Positions 3,843-12,986 of a stretch of 32,000 nucleotides of DNA are shown one piece after another. Below the pieces are notes generated by a model, which made no database searches, was not told where the DNA came from, and saw only the letters and a program-made list of their open reading frames with translations. The DNA is from an archaeon (lineage in GTDB: Archaea; Asgardarchaeota; Thorarchaeia; Thorarchaeales; Thorarchaeaceae): positions 1 through 32,000 of the forward strand of contig JAJRZD010000112.1 of assembly GCA_024275415.1 (NCBI GenBank), given 5' to 3'. A program made the position numbers and the translations under genes. Position 1 is the stretch's first letter; each line of letters opens with the position of its first letter.

Positions 3843-3877
3843 GTCCAGCTCAACCCGAGTTTCAGTTGAGCCTTCAT
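3843..3877 (-). promoter_or_regulatory. Eukaryote/Asgard-type SECIS element (3' cis-acting RNA)
   Basis: Minus-strand RNA AUGAA-GGCUCAACU-GAAACUCG-GGUUGAGCU-GGAC: UGAN/NGAN tandem G.A core, about 9-bp upper stem, AAA in the apical region; about 93 nt 3' of an in-frame TGA at a conserved Cys/Sec position. Confidence 0.75.
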
Positions 3878-4038
3878 CCACCGCCCAGCACTAGATCCTT
3901 CCGGGCTATCTCGTGCAGCTCTCCGTCGTCGTCTTCACGAACGATGACCATGTGGGCCGCACATGATAGTCAGCAGTCATAGCAGCGCACGACCATCTCA
4001 AGGAGATTCAGCACGCCTTCAGGTATCTCTTCTGTCAT
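3874..4038 (-). CDS. vhuU: Selenocysteine-containing small subunit of the F420-non-reducing [NiFe(Se)] hydrogenase (VhuU/MvhU)
   Basis: Hand translation: MTEEIPEGVLNLLEMVVRCYDC-U-LSCAAHMVIVREDDDGELHEIARKDLVLGGG*. TGA codon 23 (3972..3970) occupies the first Cys position of the L2 motif (normally RAYDPCxxCxxH). GGAG RBS upstream; the adjacent MvhA lacks this motif. Confidence 0.9.
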
Positions 4039-4049
4039 CTTGATTTCTC

Positions 4050-5366
4050 CTATGTTTTTACAAGCGGATCCGGCAGCTTCAAACTGTCCAGAGCCTTATC
4101 CTCAAAGATCTGCTTTGCAGCAGTCATAAGGGATTTTTCGATTCCTGCGATATTATTGTTGGTTGCCACAATCAGGTTGGCATGTACCAGCATCCCTTCC
4201 TCATCGCTCGTGTAATTATGCAGAAGGGTTCCTCGTGGAGCTTCAACGATTCCAACTCCATCGCCAGCCTTTGGCTCGACATCGGTGAGCTTGATATCAT
4301 CACTGACAATCAGTGGGTCCTCTAAGAGAATCTTGATCCATTCGGCAGCCTGCACAAGTTCGACAATTCTGGCATAGTGGTAGACGAAGGTGTGGTGTGA
4401 TGGTCTACCTACGAGGTCTCTCATCTCCTTGAGAGCTTCCTGTGCAAGAGGAGTTGCCATCTTCTCTGCGACATTGCACCTTGCCAATGTGTTGGCTCGC
4501 CATATGCCATCCGGATAGCCTGCTGGCTTGTAGTAGATGTGTGTTGCATACGAGTGGTCAGGGATGTGCTCACCATAGTACTTGGTATAATCCTTTGGCT
4601 CGAAGTCTGCAACAACCTTGCCATCAGGACCCATAACCCGGACATTGCCCTCGTAGATGTCCAAAACACCATTGTTTGTCAGTCCGATATAGTATGTGGG
4701 AGTGACTGCAAGCTTTGTGATGACATCGATGTAGGCATTCACAACTGTCTTTGCCAGCTCGACGGTCTTATTCACATTCTCAAACAGCTCGGGGATTTGC
4801 TTTAGCCATTTGTCACGGTCTTCCTCTGTCAGTGCATTTAGCATCCCTCCGGGTATCGCGGTAACTGGATGTATTGCCTTTGCACCGACATCTCGGATAA
4901 GCTCCTGTCCGAATTGCATGATCTTGATTGCCTGTACTGTGACATCAGGAAGGTGCTTTAGCACGGCAGCGACGTTTCTCACAGCTGGATCCGCAAAGGG
5001 ACCGAACACGAAGTCGGGTGCAGCAAGTGCGTAGAAGTGGATTGCATGCGACGAGAGCTGCTTCGCCTCTATCATCAACCTGCGAAGCTTTACCGCGGCA
5101 GGTGGTGGTGTTACATCCCATGCAGCCTCTACTGCCTTGACCGACGCAAGGTGGTGAGGTATCGGACAAATCCCACAGATACGAGGCGCAATCCGTGGAG
5201 CCTCTTCCATTGGTCGTCCTGTAAGGAACTTCTCAAAGAACCTTGTGGAACCAACATTGTATTGGATGTCTTTGACCTTGTTGTCCTTCCCGAGCTTGAT
5301 TGTCAGAGCACCGTGCCCTTCAAGTCGTGTGACTGGGTCTATCCTAATTGTCTTTTCTTCGCCCAT
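4050..5366 (-). CDS. mvhA: F420-non-reducing [NiFe] hydrogenase large subunit (group 3c, VhuA-type, C-terminally split)
   Basis: N-terminal IDPVTRLEGH, L1 motif RICGICP, EAPRGTLLH; ends LVKT* with no C-terminal DPCxxC. Confidence 0.95.
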   Translation of the reverse strand: MGEEKTIRIDPVTRLEGHGALTIKLGKDNKVKDIQYNVGSTRFFEKFLTGRPMEEAPRIAPRICGICPIPHHLASVKAVEAAWDVTPPPAAVKLRRLMIEAKQLSSHAIHFYALAAPDFVFGPFADPAVRNVAAVLKHLPDVTVQAIKIMQFGQELIRDVGAKAIHPVTAIPGGMLNALTEEDRDKWLKQIPELFENVNKTVELAKTVVNAYIDVITKLAVTPTYYIGLTNNGVLDIYEGNVRVMGPDGKVVADFEPKDYTKYYGEHIPDHSYATHIYYKPAGYPDGIWRANTLARCNVAEKMATPLAQEALKEMRDLVGRPSHHTFVYHYARIVELVQAAEWIKILLEDPLIVSDDIKLTDVEPKAGDGVGIVEAPRGTLLHNYTSDEEGMLVHANLIVATNNNIAGIEKSLMTAAKQIFEDKALDSLKLPDPLVKT

Positions 5367-6302
5367 TTAGGCTTCCTCCTGTGCTTGCTTCATATCCTCG
5401 CGTCGAACCCGCATCCTATTGAGATGGCTTGTACCATACGTAAACCTATAGAATGTCCCAAGAGGGTCTTTGACCTGCTCAACAAGCTTGTCTGGTTCTA
5501 TGGGTGCATATGTGCCTAACATCGACATGGCAGCAGCACCATAGTCTGACATGATTGGTGGAGGTGGTCCAAAACATCCACGGCAAGTCACACCCTTGTT
5601 GACACACTGACCTTCGCAGAGACCCCATGTACTAGATCCTAGGCATATGTATCCTTGCTCAAGTAAACATCTCTCAGGGTCAGCCTTTCCTGTGAACGGC
5701 CTAAGAATCTCCGTGATTGGAGTTTCCTTTTTCTCTCTCGAGCAATAATGACAGACCGTGTGAGGCGGGAGGTCAAGAGTTTCGCCTGCAAGGAGCGCGT
5801 TGATGGCTGTTGCGATTAACTTGGAAGTCGGAGGGCAACCTGGAAGATAGATGTCAAAGTCCACGTATTCTGAATTTGGCCTGACAACAGGCTCAATCCG
5901 TGGCAAGTTCTCTGAGGGAACCTTTCCATCTTTGAATGTCTTGTTCTCCCTGAATTTCACATCATAGCACTCTTCAATGTCGGACTGGTTTGCCAATGTT
6001 GGGATGCCCCCAAAACACGAACAAGAACCAAATGCTATCAGGATCTGGCATTTCTCACGCATGACTTTCAGGAGATGGATGTCCTCCTCTGTTCGGGCCA
6101 TGCCTTCATAGAACCCGACGACTATTGATTTGTCTTCGTAGTTCTCAAGATGGTGGAGCTTGAAATCAGCCACCGCCTGCCAGTATTTGATTTCCAGTTT
6201 CGGTAAGATATCTGCTAGTCCAAGATGAATATCGATCAGGCTCTGAAAGCATCCCCAACAAGAGGAGCCTTGCCCCATCGCTACAGGTACCGGGTCACTC
6301 AT
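5367..6302 (-). CDS. mvhG: F420-non-reducing hydrogenase small subunit
   Basis: SCWGC, FYEG, FGSCSCFGG, LPGCPP, TVCHYC, CLLEQGYICLG, CRGCFGP Fe-S motifs. Confidence 0.93.
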   Translation of the reverse strand: MSDPVPVAMGQGSSCWGCFQSLIDIHLGLADILPKLEIKYWQAVADFKLHHLENYEDKSIVVGFYEGMARTEEDIHLLKVMREKCQILIAFGSCSCFGGIPTLANQSDIEECYDVKFRENKTFKDGKVPSENLPRIEPVVRPNSEYVDFDIYLPGCPPTSKLIATAINALLAGETLDLPPHTVCHYCSREKKETPITEILRPFTGKADPERCLLEQGYICLGSSTWGLCEGQCVNKGVTCRGCFGPPPPIMSDYGAAAMSMLGTYAPIEPDKLVEQVKDPLGTFYRFTYGTSHLNRMRVRREDMKQAQEEA

Positions 6303-6304
6303 TC

Positions 6305-6538
6305 TTAGGCCTCCTTCATGGAATAGACAAGTTCATGGTTCTCTTCACCAGCAACCTCGATATCGCCCCACTTGAGCATCCCCAGCAGATTCCAGACTAC
6401 CAATTCGGTTGCCAGTCCAGTCTTCTGAGATATCACGGTCACGGTGTTTGCGCCGCCACTCAACGCCTCTTTTATCATTTTGCGTTGCTGACGTACATTG
6501 CTATGCTTTTGCTTGAAGTACAACGAGAATTGTTTCAT
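6305..6538 (-). CDS. Small (77 aa) winged helix-turn-helix-like protein inside the hdr-mvh operon
   Basis: Start moved to ATG 6538 (MKQFSL), overlapping the mvhD stop (ATGA). IKEALSGGANTVTVISQKTGLATELVVWNLLGMLKWGDIE has a wHTH pattern; stop is 2 nt from the mvhG start. Confidence 0.7.
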   Translation of the reverse strand: MKQFSLYFKQKHSNVRQQRKMIKEALSGGANTVTVISQKTGLATELVVWNLLGMLKWGDIEVAGEENHELVYSMKEA

Positions 6539-6978
6539 CGCCACTCCCTCTTGATTGGTCCAAGTTCCTTCACTTGGTCGATAAGTGTCCTCACTCCATC
6601 GGCAAATATCTGGGCTTCTGAAGCACTGGCCCACTGTAAGCGGACTCTCTTTGGGTTCACACCTGACTGCTCGATGACTTTCTCCATCAGTGCCCATCGT
6701 GCACGAGCCTTCAAGTTTCCACTCGTATAATGGCAGTCGCCAGGATGGCATCCGCTTACCAACACTCCGTCAGCTCCCATGTCAAGTGCTGCAAGGATGA
6801 ACTCCACATCGATTCGCCCTGTGCAGTTCACGCGCAAGATACGAGCGTTCGGAGGATATTGTATCCTCGAAGTGCCAGCAAGGTCTGCACCTGCGTAAGA
6901 GCACCAGTTGCAACAATATGCGATGATTCGTGGTTCCCAGTCAGGGTCCATCTTGCTTGTTGTGGCGATTGCTACCAT
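6535..6978 (-). CDS. mvhD: Hydrogenase delta subunit ([2Fe-2S]), all-Cys form
   Basis: YCCNWCSYAGADLAG, RVNCTGR, GCHPGDCHY, WASASE. Start moved to ATG 6978, which overlaps the hdrA' stop (TGATG). Confidence 0.93.
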   Translation of the reverse strand: MVAIATTSKMDPDWEPRIIAYCCNWCSYAGADLAGTSRIQYPPNARILRVNCTGRIDVEFILAALDMGADGVLVSGCHPGDCHYTSGNLKARARWALMEKVIEQSGVNPKRVRLQWASASEAQIFADGVRTLIDQVKELGPIKREWR

Positions 6979-8756
6979 CACGCACCACCCCCTGGAGTTG
7001 CGACTGGGACACACAGATATGCTTCTACCATTGCCATGATCTGCTCATTCGTTGAATGCAACATGATTATCGCGTTGCTTGGGCATGCCGCTGCACAGGT
7101 ACCGCATCCATGGCATTTGGCCTCGGTCACGTACGCAATATGGGGGTCTCGTGACATGTCCCAGCTTATCGCTCCGTAAGGACATGCTGTGATACAGGTG
7201 GCACAGGATGAGCACAGGTCTGGGATGACACGCGACACTGTTGATTCAATCTCGACTGCACCTTTTGCCATCAGTCCCACTGCTTTGGCTGCAGCCCCGC
7301 TCGCATCGATAACTGATTCCGAAGCGTTCTTGGCAGCCTGTGCAGCACCCGCAATCATGATTCCCGCGGTGTGCGTTGTGACAGGGTTCAGCTTCACATG
7401 TTCGGGATTGAAGAAGCCATCCGAGCTTCTCGTGAGGCTAAAGGTATGGCTCACTTCCTCTATCCCTTCTGGAGGCACCATTGCCGTGGCAAGAACGATG
7501 ATGTCTGGGTTGAATTCCATATCTGTGTCTGCGAGGACATCTTTCCAACGCATGGTGATCTTACCATCATTCACCTCTACTTCAGGTTTGGCGTCCGGAG
7601 GATACTTTGTGTAGATGACATGCTTCTGCCGAGCAACTCTCTGAAAGTCCTCGTGCTCCTTGCCGTAGGTCCGGATGTCCTGATAGAGAATGACTACCTC
7701 ATCAAGTCGATCCGCCATGATGCCCGCTGTCTTTGCCAGTGCTGAACAGCAATACCGCGAGCAATGCTCGTGTCCTTTCCAGCCCGGCTCGCGAGAGCCG
7801 ACGCATCCGATAAAGGCGACCTTCCTGACTGGCTTCCCGTCACTCGGTCTGATGAACTGCTGCTCATCAGGTCTTCCTTGCAGGTCTCCCAGAGTCATGA
7901 TATCTAATGATTTGTCATAATTATAGAGACCCACTGGGACGTATGGTTGGAATCCTGTAGCCACTATCACGGCTCCGACCTCATACTTCTTGTGTTTCTT
8001 CAAGCCTTCTACTGAAACCTCCACCTCGAAATTGCCTATGTACCCTTCGAAGTTCACAATGACTGCGCCGGTTCGAATCTCTATGTTCTTGTGCTTTCGA
8101 ACACGATGAATCATGGGTTCCAATACCTCATGACCTGGCTTGTCACCAGGAAACATATGGGCCCACTTCCGGACATTGCCGCCAAGCTCCCTTTCTCGCT
8201 CGATGAGCACTACCTCAAACCCTCTGTCTGCGATATCAAGGGCCGCCCTGAGCCCTGCAATCCCTCCACCCACGACAAGTGTGCGAGGAGTGATCTCAAC
8301 CTTTTTGATTGGCAATGGCTCAAGATTTGCAGCCCGTGCCACCGCCATCCGAACTAGGTCATTGGCTTTGGCTGTAGCAGCTTCAGGTTCTCTCATATGA
8401 CACCAAGAAACGTGCTCGCGTAGATTCACCTGCTCGAATAGATAACGGTTTAATCCGGCTTCTTCAACCACTCTCCGGAATGTAGGTTCGTGCATCCGCG
8501 GTGAGCAGCTGGCTACGATAACTCTGTTGAGGTTATGTTCATGTATCATGGTTCTGATGGTTTCCTGACCTGCATCACTACAGGTGAACATCTCATGAGT
8601 TGTAAATACAACATTTGGTAGAGTGGCTGCTGTTTTTGCCACATCCTCGACATCCACAACTCCTGCAATGTTATGGCCACAATGGCACACGAACACACCA
8701 ATCCGTAGCTCTTCCTTTGATTCCATGGCGTTCATTCCTACACTGTCTTCTGTCAT
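6978..8756 (-). CDS. hdrA: Heterodisulfide reductase subunit A paralog (HdrA'): has N-terminal and C-terminal ferredoxin domains, lacks the central ferredoxin insert
   Basis: IGVFVCHCG, SCSPRMHEPTF, NLREHVSW, VVGGGIAG FAD motif, GCVGSR...CSRYCC, C-terminal CSSCATCITACP/CHGCGTCAAACP. Start ATG 8756 overlaps the hdrB stop. Confidence 0.92.
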   Translation of the reverse strand: MTEDSVGMNAMESKEELRIGVFVCHCGHNIAGVVDVEDVAKTAATLPNVVFTTHEMFTCSDAGQETIRTMIHEHNLNRVIVASCSPRMHEPTFRRVVEEAGLNRYLFEQVNLREHVSWCHMREPEAATAKANDLVRMAVARAANLEPLPIKKVEITPRTLVVGGGIAGLRAALDIADRGFEVVLIERERELGGNVRKWAHMFPGDKPGHEVLEPMIHRVRKHKNIEIRTGAVIVNFEGYIGNFEVEVSVEGLKKHKKYEVGAVIVATGFQPYVPVGLYNYDKSLDIMTLGDLQGRPDEQQFIRPSDGKPVRKVAFIGCVGSREPGWKGHEHCSRYCCSALAKTAGIMADRLDEVVILYQDIRTYGKEHEDFQRVARQKHVIYTKYPPDAKPEVEVNDGKITMRWKDVLADTDMEFNPDIIVLATAMVPPEGIEEVSHTFSLTRSSDGFFNPEHVKLNPVTTHTAGIMIAGAAQAAKNASESVIDASGAAAKAVGLMAKGAVEIESTVSRVIPDLCSSCATCITACPYGAISWDMSRDPHIAYVTEAKCHGCGTCAAACPSNAIIMLHSTNEQIMAMVEAYLCVPVATPGGGA

Positions 8757-9628
8757 TGGCTCACCCCACAACAGTCAATTACCGAATGAGGGTCAATCTT
8801 GTTCAGCTCGACACCCAACATGTCCTCGTCCAAGCCCAATGCTGGCCCTAGAAACTGGGTGATGGGTAGCACTGGTATCTTCTGTCGATCACTGGTTCCC
8901 CCTCCGAACTGTACCTGGGTCAGCTGGATATCACAGAACACACAAGCTGTCACAATCCCGTCTGCTCCAGCTTTGGTAACGTTATCGATCTTGTCCAGTC
9001 CAATGGTCGTAGCGACATCCTCATCCATTGCGAGCATCGGACCCCCACAGCAACGTGTCTTTCCAGGATAGTCCACTGCTTGTCCGCCCACAGCTTCAAC
9101 CAGTCTATCCAGGATAGTGGGGTTCTCGGGGTCGTCAACATGGACTATCTCGTAGGGACGTGTCACATGGCATCCATAGTGCGCCGCCATTTTGATGCCA
9201 TTATAGGGCTTGACAACAGCCCGTTCTATCTTGTCGAATCCAATATCCTCTGCCAAGACCTGTAAGAGGTGACGCACACGGACTTTACCACTGTACTTCA
9301 AACCCTCTTCTGCAAGTAAGGAATTCACCTCATCTCTAGCACGGATATCATGGTCAAGAAAGTGCTTGTTCGTCTTGAGAGACCCTGAACATGCACCACA
9401 AATTGCAAGGATGTCCTTTTCCTCGCGCTCAGCCAGTGCCAGTATTCTTCCACTCATAGACGCAAAAGCCATCCTGTCCATGGATTCGACGTATTGAGCG
9501 CCACAACAATTTGTATCTTTCAGCTCGATGACATTTACTCCGAGCTTCTCAAGGACCGCGATAGTGGCAGCCTCGTATGCTGGAAGTCTGACTGGGGTGG
9601 TACAGCCTCTATAGAGCAGCATATCCAT
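8753..9628 (-). CDS. hdrB: Heterodisulfide reductase subunit B
   Basis: Two CCG domains (YRGC...CCG...CGAC; HYGCH...CCGG...CVFC). Confidence 0.93.
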   Translation of the reverse strand: MDMLLYRGCTTPVRLPAYEAATIAVLEKLGVNVIELKDTNCCGAQYVESMDRMAFASMSGRILALAEREEKDILAICGACSGSLKTNKHFLDHDIRARDEVNSLLAEEGLKYSGKVRVRHLLQVLAEDIGFDKIERAVVKPYNGIKMAAHYGCHVTRPYEIVHVDDPENPTILDRLVEAVGGQAVDYPGKTRCCGGPMLAMDEDVATTIGLDKIDNVTKAGADGIVTACVFCDIQLTQVQFGGGTSDRQKIPVLPITQFLGPALGLDEDMLGVELNKIDPHSVIDCCGVSQ

Positions 9629-10179
9629 TAGCTCCCACTCTCCTCAGCAGCTTTCTTTCGTTCGAAATACCTTTTTCTCAACTTTCCAACGAACTCGTTG
9701 TTCATGTGTAGCTCAGGGTTCAGTCCAAGGTCCTCGCGTTCGTCCTCTTGAAAATCAGTGTATGCATCTTTCAGCATCCAACCATCCTCCAACACAGTCT
9801 TCACAGCCTCTTTGAAGACCCGCGGGACATGTCCTTCTCGTGCTGCAATCGTTCGAACAGCAAGGAATATCTCGGCAGGCGACACTCCCTCTTGGCAGCG
9901 TTCCTCACACATCCTGCAATTAAGACAGAGCCACGATTGGTCGCTCGAAAGAACTTCCTCTCGAAGTCCAAGGATGATTTTTTGGATCATTCGTCTTGGC
10001 CTGTATAGATCGGTCGCATTGGCCACAACACAGCTAGCAGTACATATGCCACATTGGATACACTTGTTGATGGCTTCACCGCCTTCTACCTTCTCAACCT
10101 CTTTGGCAAAAGCTGAGGTTGGAACATGAATAGATTTCTCTTGACCTTTTGTTGTACAAGTATGCATTATATTCGTCAC
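9628..10179 (-). CDS. hdrC: Heterodisulfide reductase subunit C
   Basis: CIQCGICTASC and WLCLNCRMCEERC 2x[4Fe-4S] motifs; GTG start overlaps the upstream stop. Confidence 0.92.
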   Translation of the reverse strand: MTNIMHTCTTKGQEKSIHVPTSAFAKEVEKVEGGEAINKCIQCGICTASCVVANATDLYRPRRMIQKIILGLREEVLSSDQSWLCLNCRMCEERCQEGVSPAEIFLAVRTIAAREGHVPRVFKEAVKTVLEDGWMLKDAYTDFQEDEREDLGLNPELHMNNEFVGKLRKRYFERKKAAEESGS

Positions 10180-12986
10180 CTCGATTTGGTTGTTTCAAGC
10201 TCAGCCTCTGGAGCCAGACTTTCTATAGTATGTTCGGAATCCTGGCCTGCAATCATTCCCCCCAGTACAATTGATGCTCTCATGGCGGCCGCACTTCCCG
10301 CAGTCACTGAATCGGGTATGTCCTTCGGCCCATCAGCACAACCACAGACGAAGATACCCATCTTGCTGGTATCGACAGGAGAAGTGAGCTCGTTCCGTAC
10401 ATCGATGTAGCCTTCATCTGAGAGGGCGATTCCAAGCTCCTCTGCTAGTATATTGACATCATCTGCAGGAAGCAGACCTGGGCTTATCACCAAAAGGTCA
10501 TGCTCAACCTTCTCAACGGAGCCAGTTTCTGTGTTCTCTACTTGGATCATGAGGTTGTCATTCTCAGGGTTCTCGTCTACTTCACCAACACGCCCTCGGA
10601 CAAAGTTGACGCCAAATCGGGTCTTTGACATCTCGAAGAACTCCTCGAACCCTTTGCCAAACGCTCGAATATCCGCATAGTATATAGAAACCTTCGCCTC
10701 TGGGTCATGTTCTCTAGCCATCACAGCATTCTTGATGCCATACATACAACAGACCCTGCTACAATGGGGAACATTCTTCTGAGTATCTCGCGCTCCGACG
10801 CATTGCACGAACCCGATGTTCTTCGGCATTTTTCCGTCGCTCAGGCGTATCAGATGACCTTGAGTAGGACCCGCTGCATTGATGAGTCGCTCGAATTCCA
10901 TGGCTGTTATGACATTCTTGAACTTACCATATCCAAGCCGTTTGTATTTGCTGACCTCAAAGAGCTTGTATCCAGTGGCAACTACAATGGCTCCCACGTT
11001 CAGGCTCAACCGTTCCTCCTTCATCGAGTGATCGATGGCATCTCTATCACATGCTTCCACACAGTTCATGCACTCACAACATATCGTGCAGTTCAGACAG
11101 CGCCCTGATTCATCGAGGGCAGTATCTTCATCAAATCCAAGCTCGACCTCTGAGAAATCGCCTTTACGACTTGCGATGCTCTGATGGGGCATCTCAGCTC
11201 TGGCTTGTGGTATGAATGTCGATTGGTCTATCTTTGGTCTTGCAATCCTGTAGACCTCAGGGTCTCGCCCTGCTCGAATATCCAGTCCGTTAAGGTATCT
11301 ATCGATAGATATTGCAGCCTCCTCACCCTGCCCAACAGCCTGCACTACTGTGGCTGGGCCAAGAACACAGTCACCACCAGCGAAGACTCCCTCATTACTC
11401 GTTTGCAATGTGACTTGATCTGTGATAATGGTACCCCACTCGGTAGTATCCAAATCGTTGTGGAGTGGAATTGGTTCTACAGACTGACCAACTGCGATAA
11501 TCATAGTGTCTGCAACGACAGTGAACTCCGAATCAGGTATTGGGATAGGTCTCCTTCGCCCTGAGTGGTCAGGTTCACCCAGACGCATTCGGATGCACTT
11601 GACACCTTGCACAGTACCTTTCTGGGTCAGAACCTCTACTGGATTCGTGAGGAACATGAAGCGGATCCCCTCCTGACGGGCCATCTCTACCTCTGATGGG
11701 ATGGCTGGGAGTTCGACCTGTGAGCGCCGGTATATCATTGTGACTTCGGACGCACCCAGACGAAGAGCTGTCCTACACGAATCCACGGCTGCATCGCCAC
11801 CCCCGATGACCACTACGCGTTCACCTAATTCTACAGGCTTGTGAGACGCGACTCTATCGAGAAAATCAATTGCATGGTATACACCTTTCGAGTCTTCACC
11901 TGCAATCATCAGTTTGTTACTGTGACTGGCGCCTGTAGCTATGAAGACTGCCTTGAATCCTTCATCTTTGAGCTCATCGATTGATTGTATCTCTCTGTCA
12001 CAGACGAACTCGACGCCGTGCTTTGCGACCCATTGGATCTCTTCCTGAAGGATGTCCCTTGGCAGTCGGTATTCAGGTATCGCATATTTCAGCAGTCCTC
12101 CCTCTTCTGATCTCTTCTCAAAAACAGTCACAGGATACCCTTTACGGGCAAGATGATATGCACATGAGATTCCTGCTGGTCCGGCACCCACAACGGCAAC
12201 CCGTTCACTCCTCTTGATTTGAGGTTCCACCGTGACCTGTGTGTTGTGTTCTCTCTCGTAGTCTGAGAGGAAACGGTGGAGATTCCTGATGCTAACGCTC
12301 TCGTCATACTCTCCTCGTTGACACTGCCCTTCACACCAGCTTACACAGACCCTTCCGAGAGTGCCCGGGAATGGTATTGCATCCCGCACAATTCTGATGG
12401 CTTCTGCATATTTCTTTTGATTCATCAAAGTGACGAATGCCTGAGCATTCACGCCTGCTGGACAATTAATCCTGCAGGCTGGGTGGTCTCGTTTATCAAT
12501 CGTGTACACATTAGGTGTAGCCTGTGGGAACGGTAAATAGGTCGCTTTCCTGAAGCCCAATCCCTCATCAAATTCATTTGCAACCTCGATAGGGCAGACC
12601 TCAGAGCAGTCGCCACATCCCGAGCATTTGTCTTCCAGAATGTATCGAGGTTTCCTGATGACTTCCACATGAAAATTGCCAGCTTTGCCAGTCACTCGCT
12701 TGACTTCAGAATACGTCAGAAGCTCGATATTTGGATGTCGTGCAACCTCACTCAATCGTGGCGTCAGTATGCATGCTGAACAATCAAGGGTAGGGAAGGT
12801 CTTGTCTATTGCTGCCATATGTCCGCCAATGCTAGGCGTCTTCTCGACAAGATGGACTTTGAAACCTTGGTTTGCGATGTCCAATGCGGCTTGCATTCCA
12901 GCAACACCACCACCTATCACGAGTGCACTGGGTTCCTGGGTGTCCTTATTTGCAGGATTTGTTTGCGTAGGATGATCAACAGTCAT
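10176..12986 (-). CDS. hdrA: Large HdrA-like protein (HdrL type): HdrA FAD core with an inserted GltD/NfnB-like NAD(P)H:flavin oxidoreductase
   Basis: VIGGGVAG, DKTFPTLDCSACIL, CSGCGDCSEVCP; then PACRINCP...GRVC (GltD Fe-S), VGAGPAG, IGGGDAAVD, IYRRS; returns to HdrA at CCECMNCVEAC, TAMEFER, QCVGAR...CSRVCCMYGIK. AAGGAG RBS. Confidence 0.93.
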   Translation of the reverse strand: MTVDHPTQTNPANKDTQEPSALVIGGGVAGMQAALDIANQGFKVHLVEKTPSIGGHMAAIDKTFPTLDCSACILTPRLSEVARHPNIELLTYSEVKRVTGKAGNFHVEVIRKPRYILEDKCSGCGDCSEVCPIEVANEFDEGLGFRKATYLPFPQATPNVYTIDKRDHPACRINCPAGVNAQAFVTLMNQKKYAEAIRIVRDAIPFPGTLGRVCVSWCEGQCQRGEYDESVSIRNLHRFLSDYEREHNTQVTVEPQIKRSERVAVVGAGPAGISCAYHLARKGYPVTVFEKRSEEGGLLKYAIPEYRLPRDILQEEIQWVAKHGVEFVCDREIQSIDELKDEGFKAVFIATGASHSNKLMIAGEDSKGVYHAIDFLDRVASHKPVELGERVVVIGGGDAAVDSCRTALRLGASEVTMIYRRSQVELPAIPSEVEMARQEGIRFMFLTNPVEVLTQKGTVQGVKCIRMRLGEPDHSGRRRPIPIPDSEFTVVADTMIIAVGQSVEPIPLHNDLDTTEWGTIITDQVTLQTSNEGVFAGGDCVLGPATVVQAVGQGEEAAISIDRYLNGLDIRAGRDPEVYRIARPKIDQSTFIPQARAEMPHQSIASRKGDFSEVELGFDEDTALDESGRCLNCTICCECMNCVEACDRDAIDHSMKEERLSLNVGAIVVATGYKLFEVSKYKRLGYGKFKNVITAMEFERLINAAGPTQGHLIRLSDGKMPKNIGFVQCVGARDTQKNVPHCSRVCCMYGIKNAVMAREHDPEAKVSIYYADIRAFGKGFEEFFEMSKTRFGVNFVRGRVGEVDENPENDNLMIQVENTETGSVEKVEHDLLVISPGLLPADDVNILAEELGIALSDEGYIDVRNELTSPVDTSKMGIFVCGCADGPKDIPDSVTAGSAAAMRASIVLGGMIAGQDSEHTIESLAPEAELETTKSR

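Follow-up and report, generated by a model that had tools for sequence, protein, structure and literature searches.

The window analysed here, 32,000 nucleotides of the Thorarchaeaceae contig JAJRZD010000112.1 (assembly GCA_024275415.1, positions 1 to 32,000 of the forward strand), encodes two HdrA-like flavoproteins, HdrL and HdrA', each of which lacks two domains of the full HdrA chain. Conserved motifs and a structural model suggest that they are probably the two halves of a split HdrL-type enzyme, assembled as a pseudo-symmetric heterodimer that replaces the HdrA homodimer of methanogens. A first-pass annotation had proposed that the full set of domains is rebuilt only in trans, and this central inference is supported by natural fusions of the two proteins, by gene linkage in 13 of 13 related loci, by the absence of a separate gene for the N-terminal domain and by the modelled complex. 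We refer to HdrA modules that have no N-terminal domain, keep the DCxxC motif and the inserted ferredoxin, and have no C-terminal ferredoxin as A-type, and to their exact complement as B-type. The two genes and their diagnostic segments are:

10176..12986, minus strand: hdrL, 936 amino acids, an A-type HdrA core with a GltD/NfnB-like module nested within the inserted ferredoxin
12771..12785, minus strand: DCSAC of HdrL, residues 68-72, in which Cys69 and Cys72 are the counterparts of Cys194 and Cys197 in Methanothermococcus (M.) thermolithotrophicus HdrA (alignment offset, 5ODC numbering)
11112..12491, minus strand: GltD/NfnB-like insert of HdrL, approximately residues 166-625, comprising an iron-sulfur part (Fer4_20), the GAGPAG motif of an FAD site and a second Rossmann site (GGGDAA, then YRR)
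6978..8756, minus strand: hdrA', 592 amino acids from ATG, a B-type HdrA
8322..8720, minus strand: N-terminal cluster domain of HdrA', with C29, C31, C64 and C89 and an extra C124, all invariant
8130..8156, minus strand: MFPGDKPGH of HdrA', a cysteine-free segment in place of TFPTLDCxxC
7062..7229, minus strand: C-terminal ferredoxin of HdrA', 2x[4Fe-4S], with two CxxCxxCxxxCP motifs

Alignment of both proteins to solved methanogen HdrA (PDB 8rvu, 8rvv, 5odc) revealed that HdrL begins at the flavin adenine dinucleotide (FAD) motif and ends after the thioredoxin-reductase-like domain. Residues 12-165 correspond to HdrA 134-287, which comprises the first part of the thioredoxin-reductase-like domain and the first half of the inserted ferredoxin, and residues 635-908 correspond to HdrA 289-561; HdrL showed no match to the N-terminal domain or to the C-terminal ferredoxin of the solved proteins, in agreement with the earlier description of a 936-residue protein that lacks both and keeps DCSAC and the central ferredoxin. 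The GltD/NfnB-like module sits between the two halves of the inserted ferredoxin, and residues 168-566 match nearly whole NfnB/GltD-type proteins (e.g., 5jca_L, 1e-88), with Pfam matches to Fer4_20 and Pyr_redox_2 and an NCBIfam PRK12771 score of 518 against a cut-off of 516. Among 18 HdrL-type sequences, Cys69 and Cys72 are invariant, as are the GAGPAG and GGGDAA...YRR motifs of the insert, in which the FAD and NAD(P)H site motifs are intact; two residues described as hallmarks of bifurcating HdrA flavins, Glu356 and Lys409 of methanogen HdrA, have their equivalents in E699 and K752, likewise invariant in HdrL-type sequences. The GGGDAA...YRR motif is the one feature that points to a preference for NADPH. 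Where the GltD module meets the second half of the inserted ferredoxin (residues 630-646 of HdrL, ~11049-11099, minus strand) lie seven cysteines (C630, C633, C636, C637, C639, C642 and C646), six of them invariant, where a canonical ferredoxin motif requires four; the Pfam Fer4_20 match in HdrL does not begin until profile position 29. The ligation of clusters at this point may differ from that in both parents.

HdrA' is the reciprocal case. Residues 16-253 correspond to HdrA 6-243 and residues 262-590 to HdrA 326-657, the inserted ferredoxin of ~82 residues is absent, MFPGDKPGHE stands in place of TFPTLDCSMC, and the FAD domain is thioredoxin-reductase-like without Cys194/197, all of which bears out what had been claimed for the 592-residue protein (N-terminal domain and C-terminal ferredoxin present, MFPGDKPGH for DCxxC, no central ferredoxin). 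The open reading frame (6978-8771, minus strand) translates to 597 residues from TTG and to 592 when started at the ATG at 8756, where this start and the hdrB stop share the sequence ATGA. None of 25 B-type neighbors has a cysteine at the DCxxC position, and C29, C31, C64, C89 and all eight cysteines of the C-terminal ferredoxin are invariant among 21 HdrA' sequences. At the Glu356 position the HdrA' consensus is Gln (Gln298 here) with K347 kept, and most other B-type modules also lack the Glu; the FAD site and the CxnCxxxCC cluster are retained by both HdrL and HdrA'. Against the NCBIfam HdrA models NF041778, NF041891 and NF040770 the best scores were 578 and 544 bits, with cut-offs of 1100-1400, which places both proteins far below the level of canonical methanogen HdrA. 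An additional cysteine of HdrA', Cys124 (~8400-8402, minus strand; loci L013-L038), gives SWCH for SWVH and is invariant among the 21 sequences of the HdrA' clade, while many other B-type modules, including bacterial HdrL B-halves, carry a cysteine three residues earlier (HCSWVH or QCSWVH).

In methanogen HdrA, Cys197 of the other protomer is a ligand of the N-terminal cluster, through which the low-potential path leads to the inserted ferredoxin (PMC9012536). The first-pass annotation had likewise assigned a DCxxC cysteine to the N-terminal cluster of the partner, consistent with the summary of the Wagner 2017 structure in PMC9012536. The corresponding contact in the Thorarchaeota pair was modelled with HdrL 1-166 and 625-936 as two chains, the insert being left out, together with HdrA' 14-512. 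The heterodimer scored 0.91 versus 0.69 for the best of three controls, with runs agreeing in at least 87% of contacts and a partner pLDDT (predicted local distance difference test) of at least 89; 58 of 80 solved complexes attain the pass mark of the procedure, as do 2 of 110 mismatched pairs. The confident interface comprises HdrL 63-77 (TFPTLDCSACILTP) and HdrA' 31-34, 64-67 and 89-90, i.e., the N-terminal cluster cysteines and their neighbors, and does not include HdrA' residue 124. The heterodimer arm of the multimer comparison that had been suggested at the outset thus came out in favor of the pairing, and the modelled placement of DCSAC against the N-terminal cysteines of HdrA' is the arrangement expected for a ligand provided in trans.

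Natural fusions join the same two proteins in a single chain. The best 120 HdrL homologues include 89 split forms of ~900-935 residues, those named by source being almost all labelled as Asgard lineages, and 29 fusions of 1460-1605 residues with 45-50% identity to HdrL and the exact architecture of HdrL followed by HdrA'. Written with TRX for the thioredoxin-reductase-like domain, iFd and cFd for the inserted and C-terminal ferredoxins and NTD for the N-terminal domain, the order in the 29 fusions is TRXa-iFd-GltD-iFd-TRXb, then NTD-TRX(no Cys197)-cFd, and one of them carries a fused MvhD in addition. The B-halves have the N-terminal domain and the C-terminal ferredoxin and no cysteine at the Cys197 place, and in 24 of 29 the inserted ferredoxin is missing as well. 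A fused form of 1648 residues is present in genome G032. On an unrelated contig, hdrL (898 residues) is directly followed by a B-type hdrA' (566 residues) beside a hydrogenase, and on a second one a split hdrL is followed by the start of an N-terminal-domain reading frame just before the record ends.

The same complementarity recurs throughout the genome from which the window derives (3.5 Mb, 92.9% complete). Its thirteen HdrA modules are five A-type, five B-type and three complete; every A-type module is adjoined by a B-type module, and no orphan of either type occurs in the whole genome. Three of the pairs are split, namely the hdrL/hdrA' operon itself (contig C97), a pair of 444 and 583 residues on contig C21 and a pair of 416 and 721 residues on contig C47; the other two are single chains with the A-half first (1173 and 1041 residues, both on contig C73). 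A search of the genome for the N-terminal domain found it only within B-type or complete HdrAs, so that a separate gene that could supply it to HdrL, which the first-pass annotation had named as evidence against an obligate pair, was not found at this level of completeness. The C21 locus (75708-80178) has the order hdrCB-A6-B-mvhD and constitutes a second operon of this kind in the same genome, A6 being a plain A-type HdrA; an in-frame TGA near its A6 gene was considered as a selenocysteine codon and rejected, as it is the gene's own stop, the alignment having overrun the gene end, and the downstream B-type gene lies in another frame. On C73 (50840-59461), two divergent fused A-B proteins flank one hdrCB pair.

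Linkage of the two genes is also conserved in relatives. Fifteen of 24 genomes from this family carry a full-length HdrL orthologue (59-83% identity), and in all 13 related loci with sufficient contig a B-type HdrA' lies in the same cluster as HdrL; the co-occurrence check proposed with the original prediction therefore never returned HdrL without a nearby B-type partner. The closest HdrL homologues (up to 83% identity) bear the NCBI name Candidatus Thorarchaeota archaeon. In this genome and seven others the order is hdrL-hdrC-hdrB-hdrA'-mvhD-orf-vhuG-vhuA (Form 1), with G016 showing hdrC-hdrB-hdrL-hdrA'.

In the window, hdrL, hdrC, hdrB, hdrA', mvhD, orf77, vhuG, vhuA and vhuU form, in this order, a single tightly packed operon on the minus strand. 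From hdrL through vhuA, adjacent stops and starts overlap by 1-4 bases or abut, apart from a 2-base gap before vhuG, and vhuU is preceded by an 11-base gap. The remaining members are:

9628..10179, minus strand: hdrC, a two-cluster ferredoxin-like subunit; its start overlaps the hdrL stop
8753..9628, minus strand: hdrB, with two CCG domains
6535..6978, minus strand: mvhD/vhuD, 147 amino acids, FlpD family; its start overlaps the hdrA' stop (TGATG)
6305..6538, minus strand: orf77, a conserved small gene between mvhD and vhuG
5367..6302, minus strand: vhuG/mvhG, [NiFe]-hydrogenase small subunit
4050..5366, minus strand: vhuA, [NiFe]-hydrogenase large subunit without the C-terminal nickel-binding tail
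3874..4038, minus strand: vhuU, 54 codons with an in-frame TGA read as selenocysteine (…YDCULSCAAH…), which provides the large-subunit tail that vhuA lacks

Pfam matches to FlpD (7e-51), Oxidored_q6 (1e-20) and NiFeSe_Hases (2e-26) identify a Mvh/Vhu-type (group 3c) [NiFe]-hydrogenase module encoded together with the hdr genes. An mvhD gene directly follows every B-type gene or is fused to the B-type C-terminus, and MvhD is therefore predicted to dock on the B-type subunit, as had been claimed for HdrA'. The small gene orf77 (77 codons) starts in overlap with the mvhD stop and stops 2 bases short of the vhuG start; a gene of this type (77-82 residues, motif ...VVWNLLGMLKWG.VEV.GE...) occupies the ~233-nucleotide gap in most of ten related Thorarchaeota-family loci, the gap being larger in a few, and a shorter form is present in a more distant Asgard genome, while a Pfam search at E values up to 5 returned no family match for orf77. 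A scan of the operon for sigma-70 promoters and terminators gave counts close to the shuffled expectation, the sigma-70 model not being informative for an archaeon.

From these parts we infer an electron route through the putative heterodimer. HdrA' would supply the N-terminal [4Fe-4S] domain, with Cys72 of HdrL as the fourth ligand of its cluster, and also the C-terminal ferredoxin as the docking site of MvhD and the Vhu [NiFeSe] hydrogenase. Because Cys72 lies in HdrL's own flavin domain, the shared N-terminal cluster would adjoin the HdrL FAD. HdrL would supply the sole fully wired flavin, with the equivalents of Glu356 and Lys409, and there would be one such flavin per heterodimer since HdrL keeps E699 and K752 and HdrA' has lost the Glu. 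The C-terminal ferredoxin of HdrA', MvhD and the Vhu hydrogenase would form the input/output branch; the high-potential branch would run from the CxnCxxxCC cluster through HdrC/HdrB to a disulfide; and the low-potential branch would run from the shared N-terminal cluster to the inserted ferredoxin of HdrL and on to the built-in NfnB/GltD-like FAD/NADPH module rather than to free ferredoxin. HdrBC, which the first-pass annotation placed on HdrL, might bind either HdrL or HdrA', since both keep CxnCxxxCC. The most likely net reaction would be H2 + NADP+ + R-S-S-R -> NADPH + thiols, or its reverse. Asgard archaea are not known to make coenzyme M (CoM) or coenzyme B (CoB), and the disulfide substrate would therefore not by default be that of CoM and CoB.

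Several considerations weigh against this picture and bear on alternatives to it. One is energetic: the transfer of electrons from H2 to NADP+ and from H2 to a disulfide are both downhill, and the need for bifurcation is therefore not evident. A further concern is the model, which may have passed through its likeness to, or memory of, solved HdrA homodimers; it was built with self-made alignments and a split chain, in which it differs from the calibration, and its score compares the heterodimer with three controls only. Alternatively, HdrL might be a homodimer that forms an NADPH:disulfide reductase with HdrBC, and HdrA' a separate homodimer that forms a hydrogenase-linked module with MvhD and Vhu, the domain losses being independent simplifications. 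Both proteins do keep the FAD site and the CxnCxxxCC cluster, and 6tjr, an HdrA-like protein of 349 residues without the N-terminal domain, was solved with two identical chains in the entry. However, proteins with these two loss patterns have been joined repeatedly into a single chain and in the same order, the genome contains no lone A-type or B-type gene, HdrL-type proteins conserve Cys69 and Cys72 without exception although they themselves lack an N-terminal domain, and the model docks these cysteines onto the N-terminal cysteines of HdrA'; we regard separate homodimers as highly improbable. An arrangement less remote than this, though still unlikely, is that the heterodimer forms without cluster sharing being what makes it obligatory, with Cys124 as the fourth ligand in cis and DCSAC serving another role near the HdrL flavin. 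The extra invariant Cys124 of HdrA' could complete the N-terminal cluster in this way: it is conserved in all 21 HdrA' sequences and absent from full-type HdrAs, and the displaced cysteine of many other B-type modules could be read similarly. Yet two B-type modules have no such cysteine, one full-type HdrA with DCGIC does have it, and residue 124 lies outside the confident interface, in which HdrA' 31-34, 64-67 and 89-90 face HdrL 68-77. In addition, the loss of DCxxC extends to all B-type modules, the very ones whose partner has no N-terminal domain, which argues that the motif acts mainly as a ligand in trans.

The exclusivity of the pair is open to more serious question. In six genomes (Form 2; loci L016, L018, L023, L024, L025 and L026 of G010, G019, G012, G017, G015 and G024, respectively), hdrL is followed by hdrC-hdrB-A6-hdrA'-mvhD-vhuGA, with a plain A6-type HdrA of 432-448 residues between hdrB and hdrA' and, in five of them, a non-coding gap of 230-350 nucleotides after hdrL; a search of these hdrL-hdrC gaps found no conserved small open reading frame. 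Five of the genomes are 91-98% complete and G024 ~88%, and in the five searched (all but G024) only one close HdrA' was found per whole genome. A single HdrA' thus stands beside both HdrL and A6, and the pairing with HdrL may be non-exclusive; since HdrA' appears to be shared in these six genomes, HdrL would not be the only, and perhaps not the primary, partner of the HdrA' family. The order hdrCB-A6-B-mvhD is present in nearly every family genome examined, including two without HdrL, and gene content accordingly indicates that the HdrA' family is also, and more generally, a partner of plain A6. HdrA' could then be a shared docking subunit that pairs with HdrL (NADPH-linked) or with A6 (ferredoxin-linked) on one HdrA'/MvhD/Vhu/HdrBC platform, and the two HdrA' paralogues of the present genome (67% identical) might cross-pair. 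The HdrL core is 66-80% identical to A6, and in a tree of 25 B-type proteins the HdrA' copies from HdrL operons do not form a clade separate from A6-adjacent copies, although the backbone of this tree is unresolved, its labels need at least two changes and it supports no order of events. Against sharing stand the one B-type gene per A-type gene in this genome and at least six others and the translational coupling of hdrL to hdrC-hdrB-hdrA' in the window, which fits a dedicated pair. We consider shared docking a minority possibility, clearly stronger than either of the preceding alternatives; the broader proposal that B-type HdrA', MvhD, Vhu and HdrBC constitute a common Thorarchaeota platform for interchangeable A-type subunits (A6 to ferredoxin, HdrL to NADP+) is slightly more tentative still. 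In one Form 2 locus (L016 8898-8901, G010:C24), the TGA that terminates A6 directly precedes the hdrA' ATG in the same frame, giving a 1038-residue open frame with one TGA; read-through to a fused type II HdrA is conceivable in a selenocysteine-using lineage, and the arrangement may also be a coincidence.

The split HdrL-type heterodimer favored here has clear precedents. For the tandem HdrA5/HdrA6 and HdrA12/HdrA13 and the fused HdrA3/HdrA4 of anaerobic methanotrophic archaea (ANME), the authors of an earlier study proposed a heterodimer in which the two-fold symmetry known from the methanogen enzyme is lost (Chadwick 2022, PMC9012536). As in those ANME pairs (PMC9012536), one partner has the N-terminal domain and no Cys197 while the other shows the reverse, and the genes are tandem or fused; HdrL and HdrA' display the same split of domain and Cys197 and lie in one operon with overlapping stops and starts, the physical heterodimer being predicted by the model. 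Unlike in the ANME pairs, the Cys197-bearing HdrL also has a GltD/NfnB insert, its gene is separated from hdrA' by hdrC and hdrB, the cluster runs on into a selenium-type Vhu hydrogenase, and the host is a Thorarchaeota archaeon without methane metabolism. HdrL by itself resembles type III HdrA, in which A9 equals A6 plus GltD (Lyu 2025, PMC12054007) and to which the NfnB-inserted HdrA9-11 of ANME-1 (PMC9012536) are comparable: it too lacks the N-terminal domain and the C-terminal ferredoxin, has an NfnB/GltD-like insert of ~450-500 residues that splits the inserted ferredoxin, keeps the Glu356/Lys409 equivalents and is clustered with other hdrA genes. Lyu 2025 (PMC12054007) described nine type III sequences only, from ANME-1 and Bathyarchaeota, and inferred NAD+ from GXGXXG; in contrast, GGGDAA and YRR of HdrL point to NADPH, and the operon also encodes a B-type partner, HdrBC and a hydrogenase. 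The name HdrL was first given in Desulfobacterium autotrophicum HRM2 to a heterodisulfide reductase/glutamate synthase fusion followed by mvhD (Strittmatter 2009, PMC2702500). That bacterial protein is one chain with the exact architecture of HdrL plus HdrA', whereas here the enzyme is split into two genes with hdrCB between them, the B-type half being a separate gene 1.4 kb downstream of hdrL.

Compared with the MvhAGD-HdrABC complex of methanogens (5ODC, 8RVU, 7BKB), the operon encodes the same subunits (HdrA, B, C, MvhD, G and A), and HdrL and HdrA' together hold all cluster-binding motifs of one HdrA protomer pair. The methanogen complex is built on a homodimer of complete HdrA and reduces free ferredoxin and CoM-S-S-CoB; each dimer of the present system would instead have one N-terminal cluster, one inserted and one C-terminal ferredoxin, plus the NADPH module. 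QmoA and QmoB of sulfate reducers are likewise two different HdrA-like flavoproteins, one short and one longer, in one complex, which includes the membrane haem subunit QmoC and works with adenosine 5'-phosphosulfate reductase. Among those open reading frames of the window that were scanned there was neither a membrane subunit nor an apr gene, the operon having HdrBC and a hydrogenase instead. Elsewhere in the genome, the C47 locus (5910-10752) combines hdrCB with a 416-residue A-type protein with a degenerate inserted ferredoxin and a 721-residue B-MvhD fusion, and this pair looks more Qmo-like than the hdrL/hdrA' operon.

A second GltD-inserted HdrA, of ~1120 residues, keeps the N-terminal domain, DCxxC and the C-terminal ferredoxin all together and could form a homodimer. 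This protein, which corresponds to the A10-like form of Lyu 2025 (PMC12054007), is encoded with hdrCB or an HdrD-like gene, together with mvhD. Several Thorarchaeota and two further contigs have it, often adjoining a split HdrL. Its positions are:

L019, 3316-6687: ~1120-residue GltD-inserted HdrA
L021, 482-3844: ~1120-residue GltD-inserted HdrA
L027, 1123-4488: ~1120-residue GltD-inserted HdrA
L045, 3064-6429: ~1120-residue GltD-inserted HdrA
L046, 3011-6397: ~1120-residue GltD-inserted HdrA

Multiple and duplicated-fused HdrAs in Thorarchaeota have been recorded in a survey of archaeal fusions (PMC11237513). Our literature search found no paper describing the hdrL/hdrA' operon in Thorarchaeota, and the PDB sequence matches of HdrL and HdrA' include no solved A/B-type HdrA structure. 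The idea of a heterodimer based on complementarity of Cys197 and the N-terminal domain is already published (Chadwick 2022; Lyu 2025), and the operon, in which a split HdrL is connected to a Vhu hydrogenase of the selenium type, adds an Asgard member to a known kind rather than a new principle; the occurrence of HdrL and a plain A6 beside a single HdrA' in some relatives is the one point that may go beyond the literature. If A-type subunits are indeed interchangeable, ferredoxin versus NADPH coupling of one hydrogenase/disulfide-reductase core could be switched by subunit exchange, and genomes like the present one would have fixed both states as separate operons after duplication.

Flavin-based electron bifurcation of the HdrA type is central to anaerobic energy conservation, and Asgard archaea harbor many uncharacterized HdrA paralogues. 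HdrL, HdrC, HdrB, HdrA', MvhD and VhuGAU constitute a compact, complete and conserved parts list for what would be an asymmetric HdrA enzyme with a single wired flavin, which makes the operon a good target for testing the published but unproven heterodimer hypothesis. It could also reveal how the prokaryotes most closely related to eukaryotes couple hydrogen, NADPH and a disulfide.

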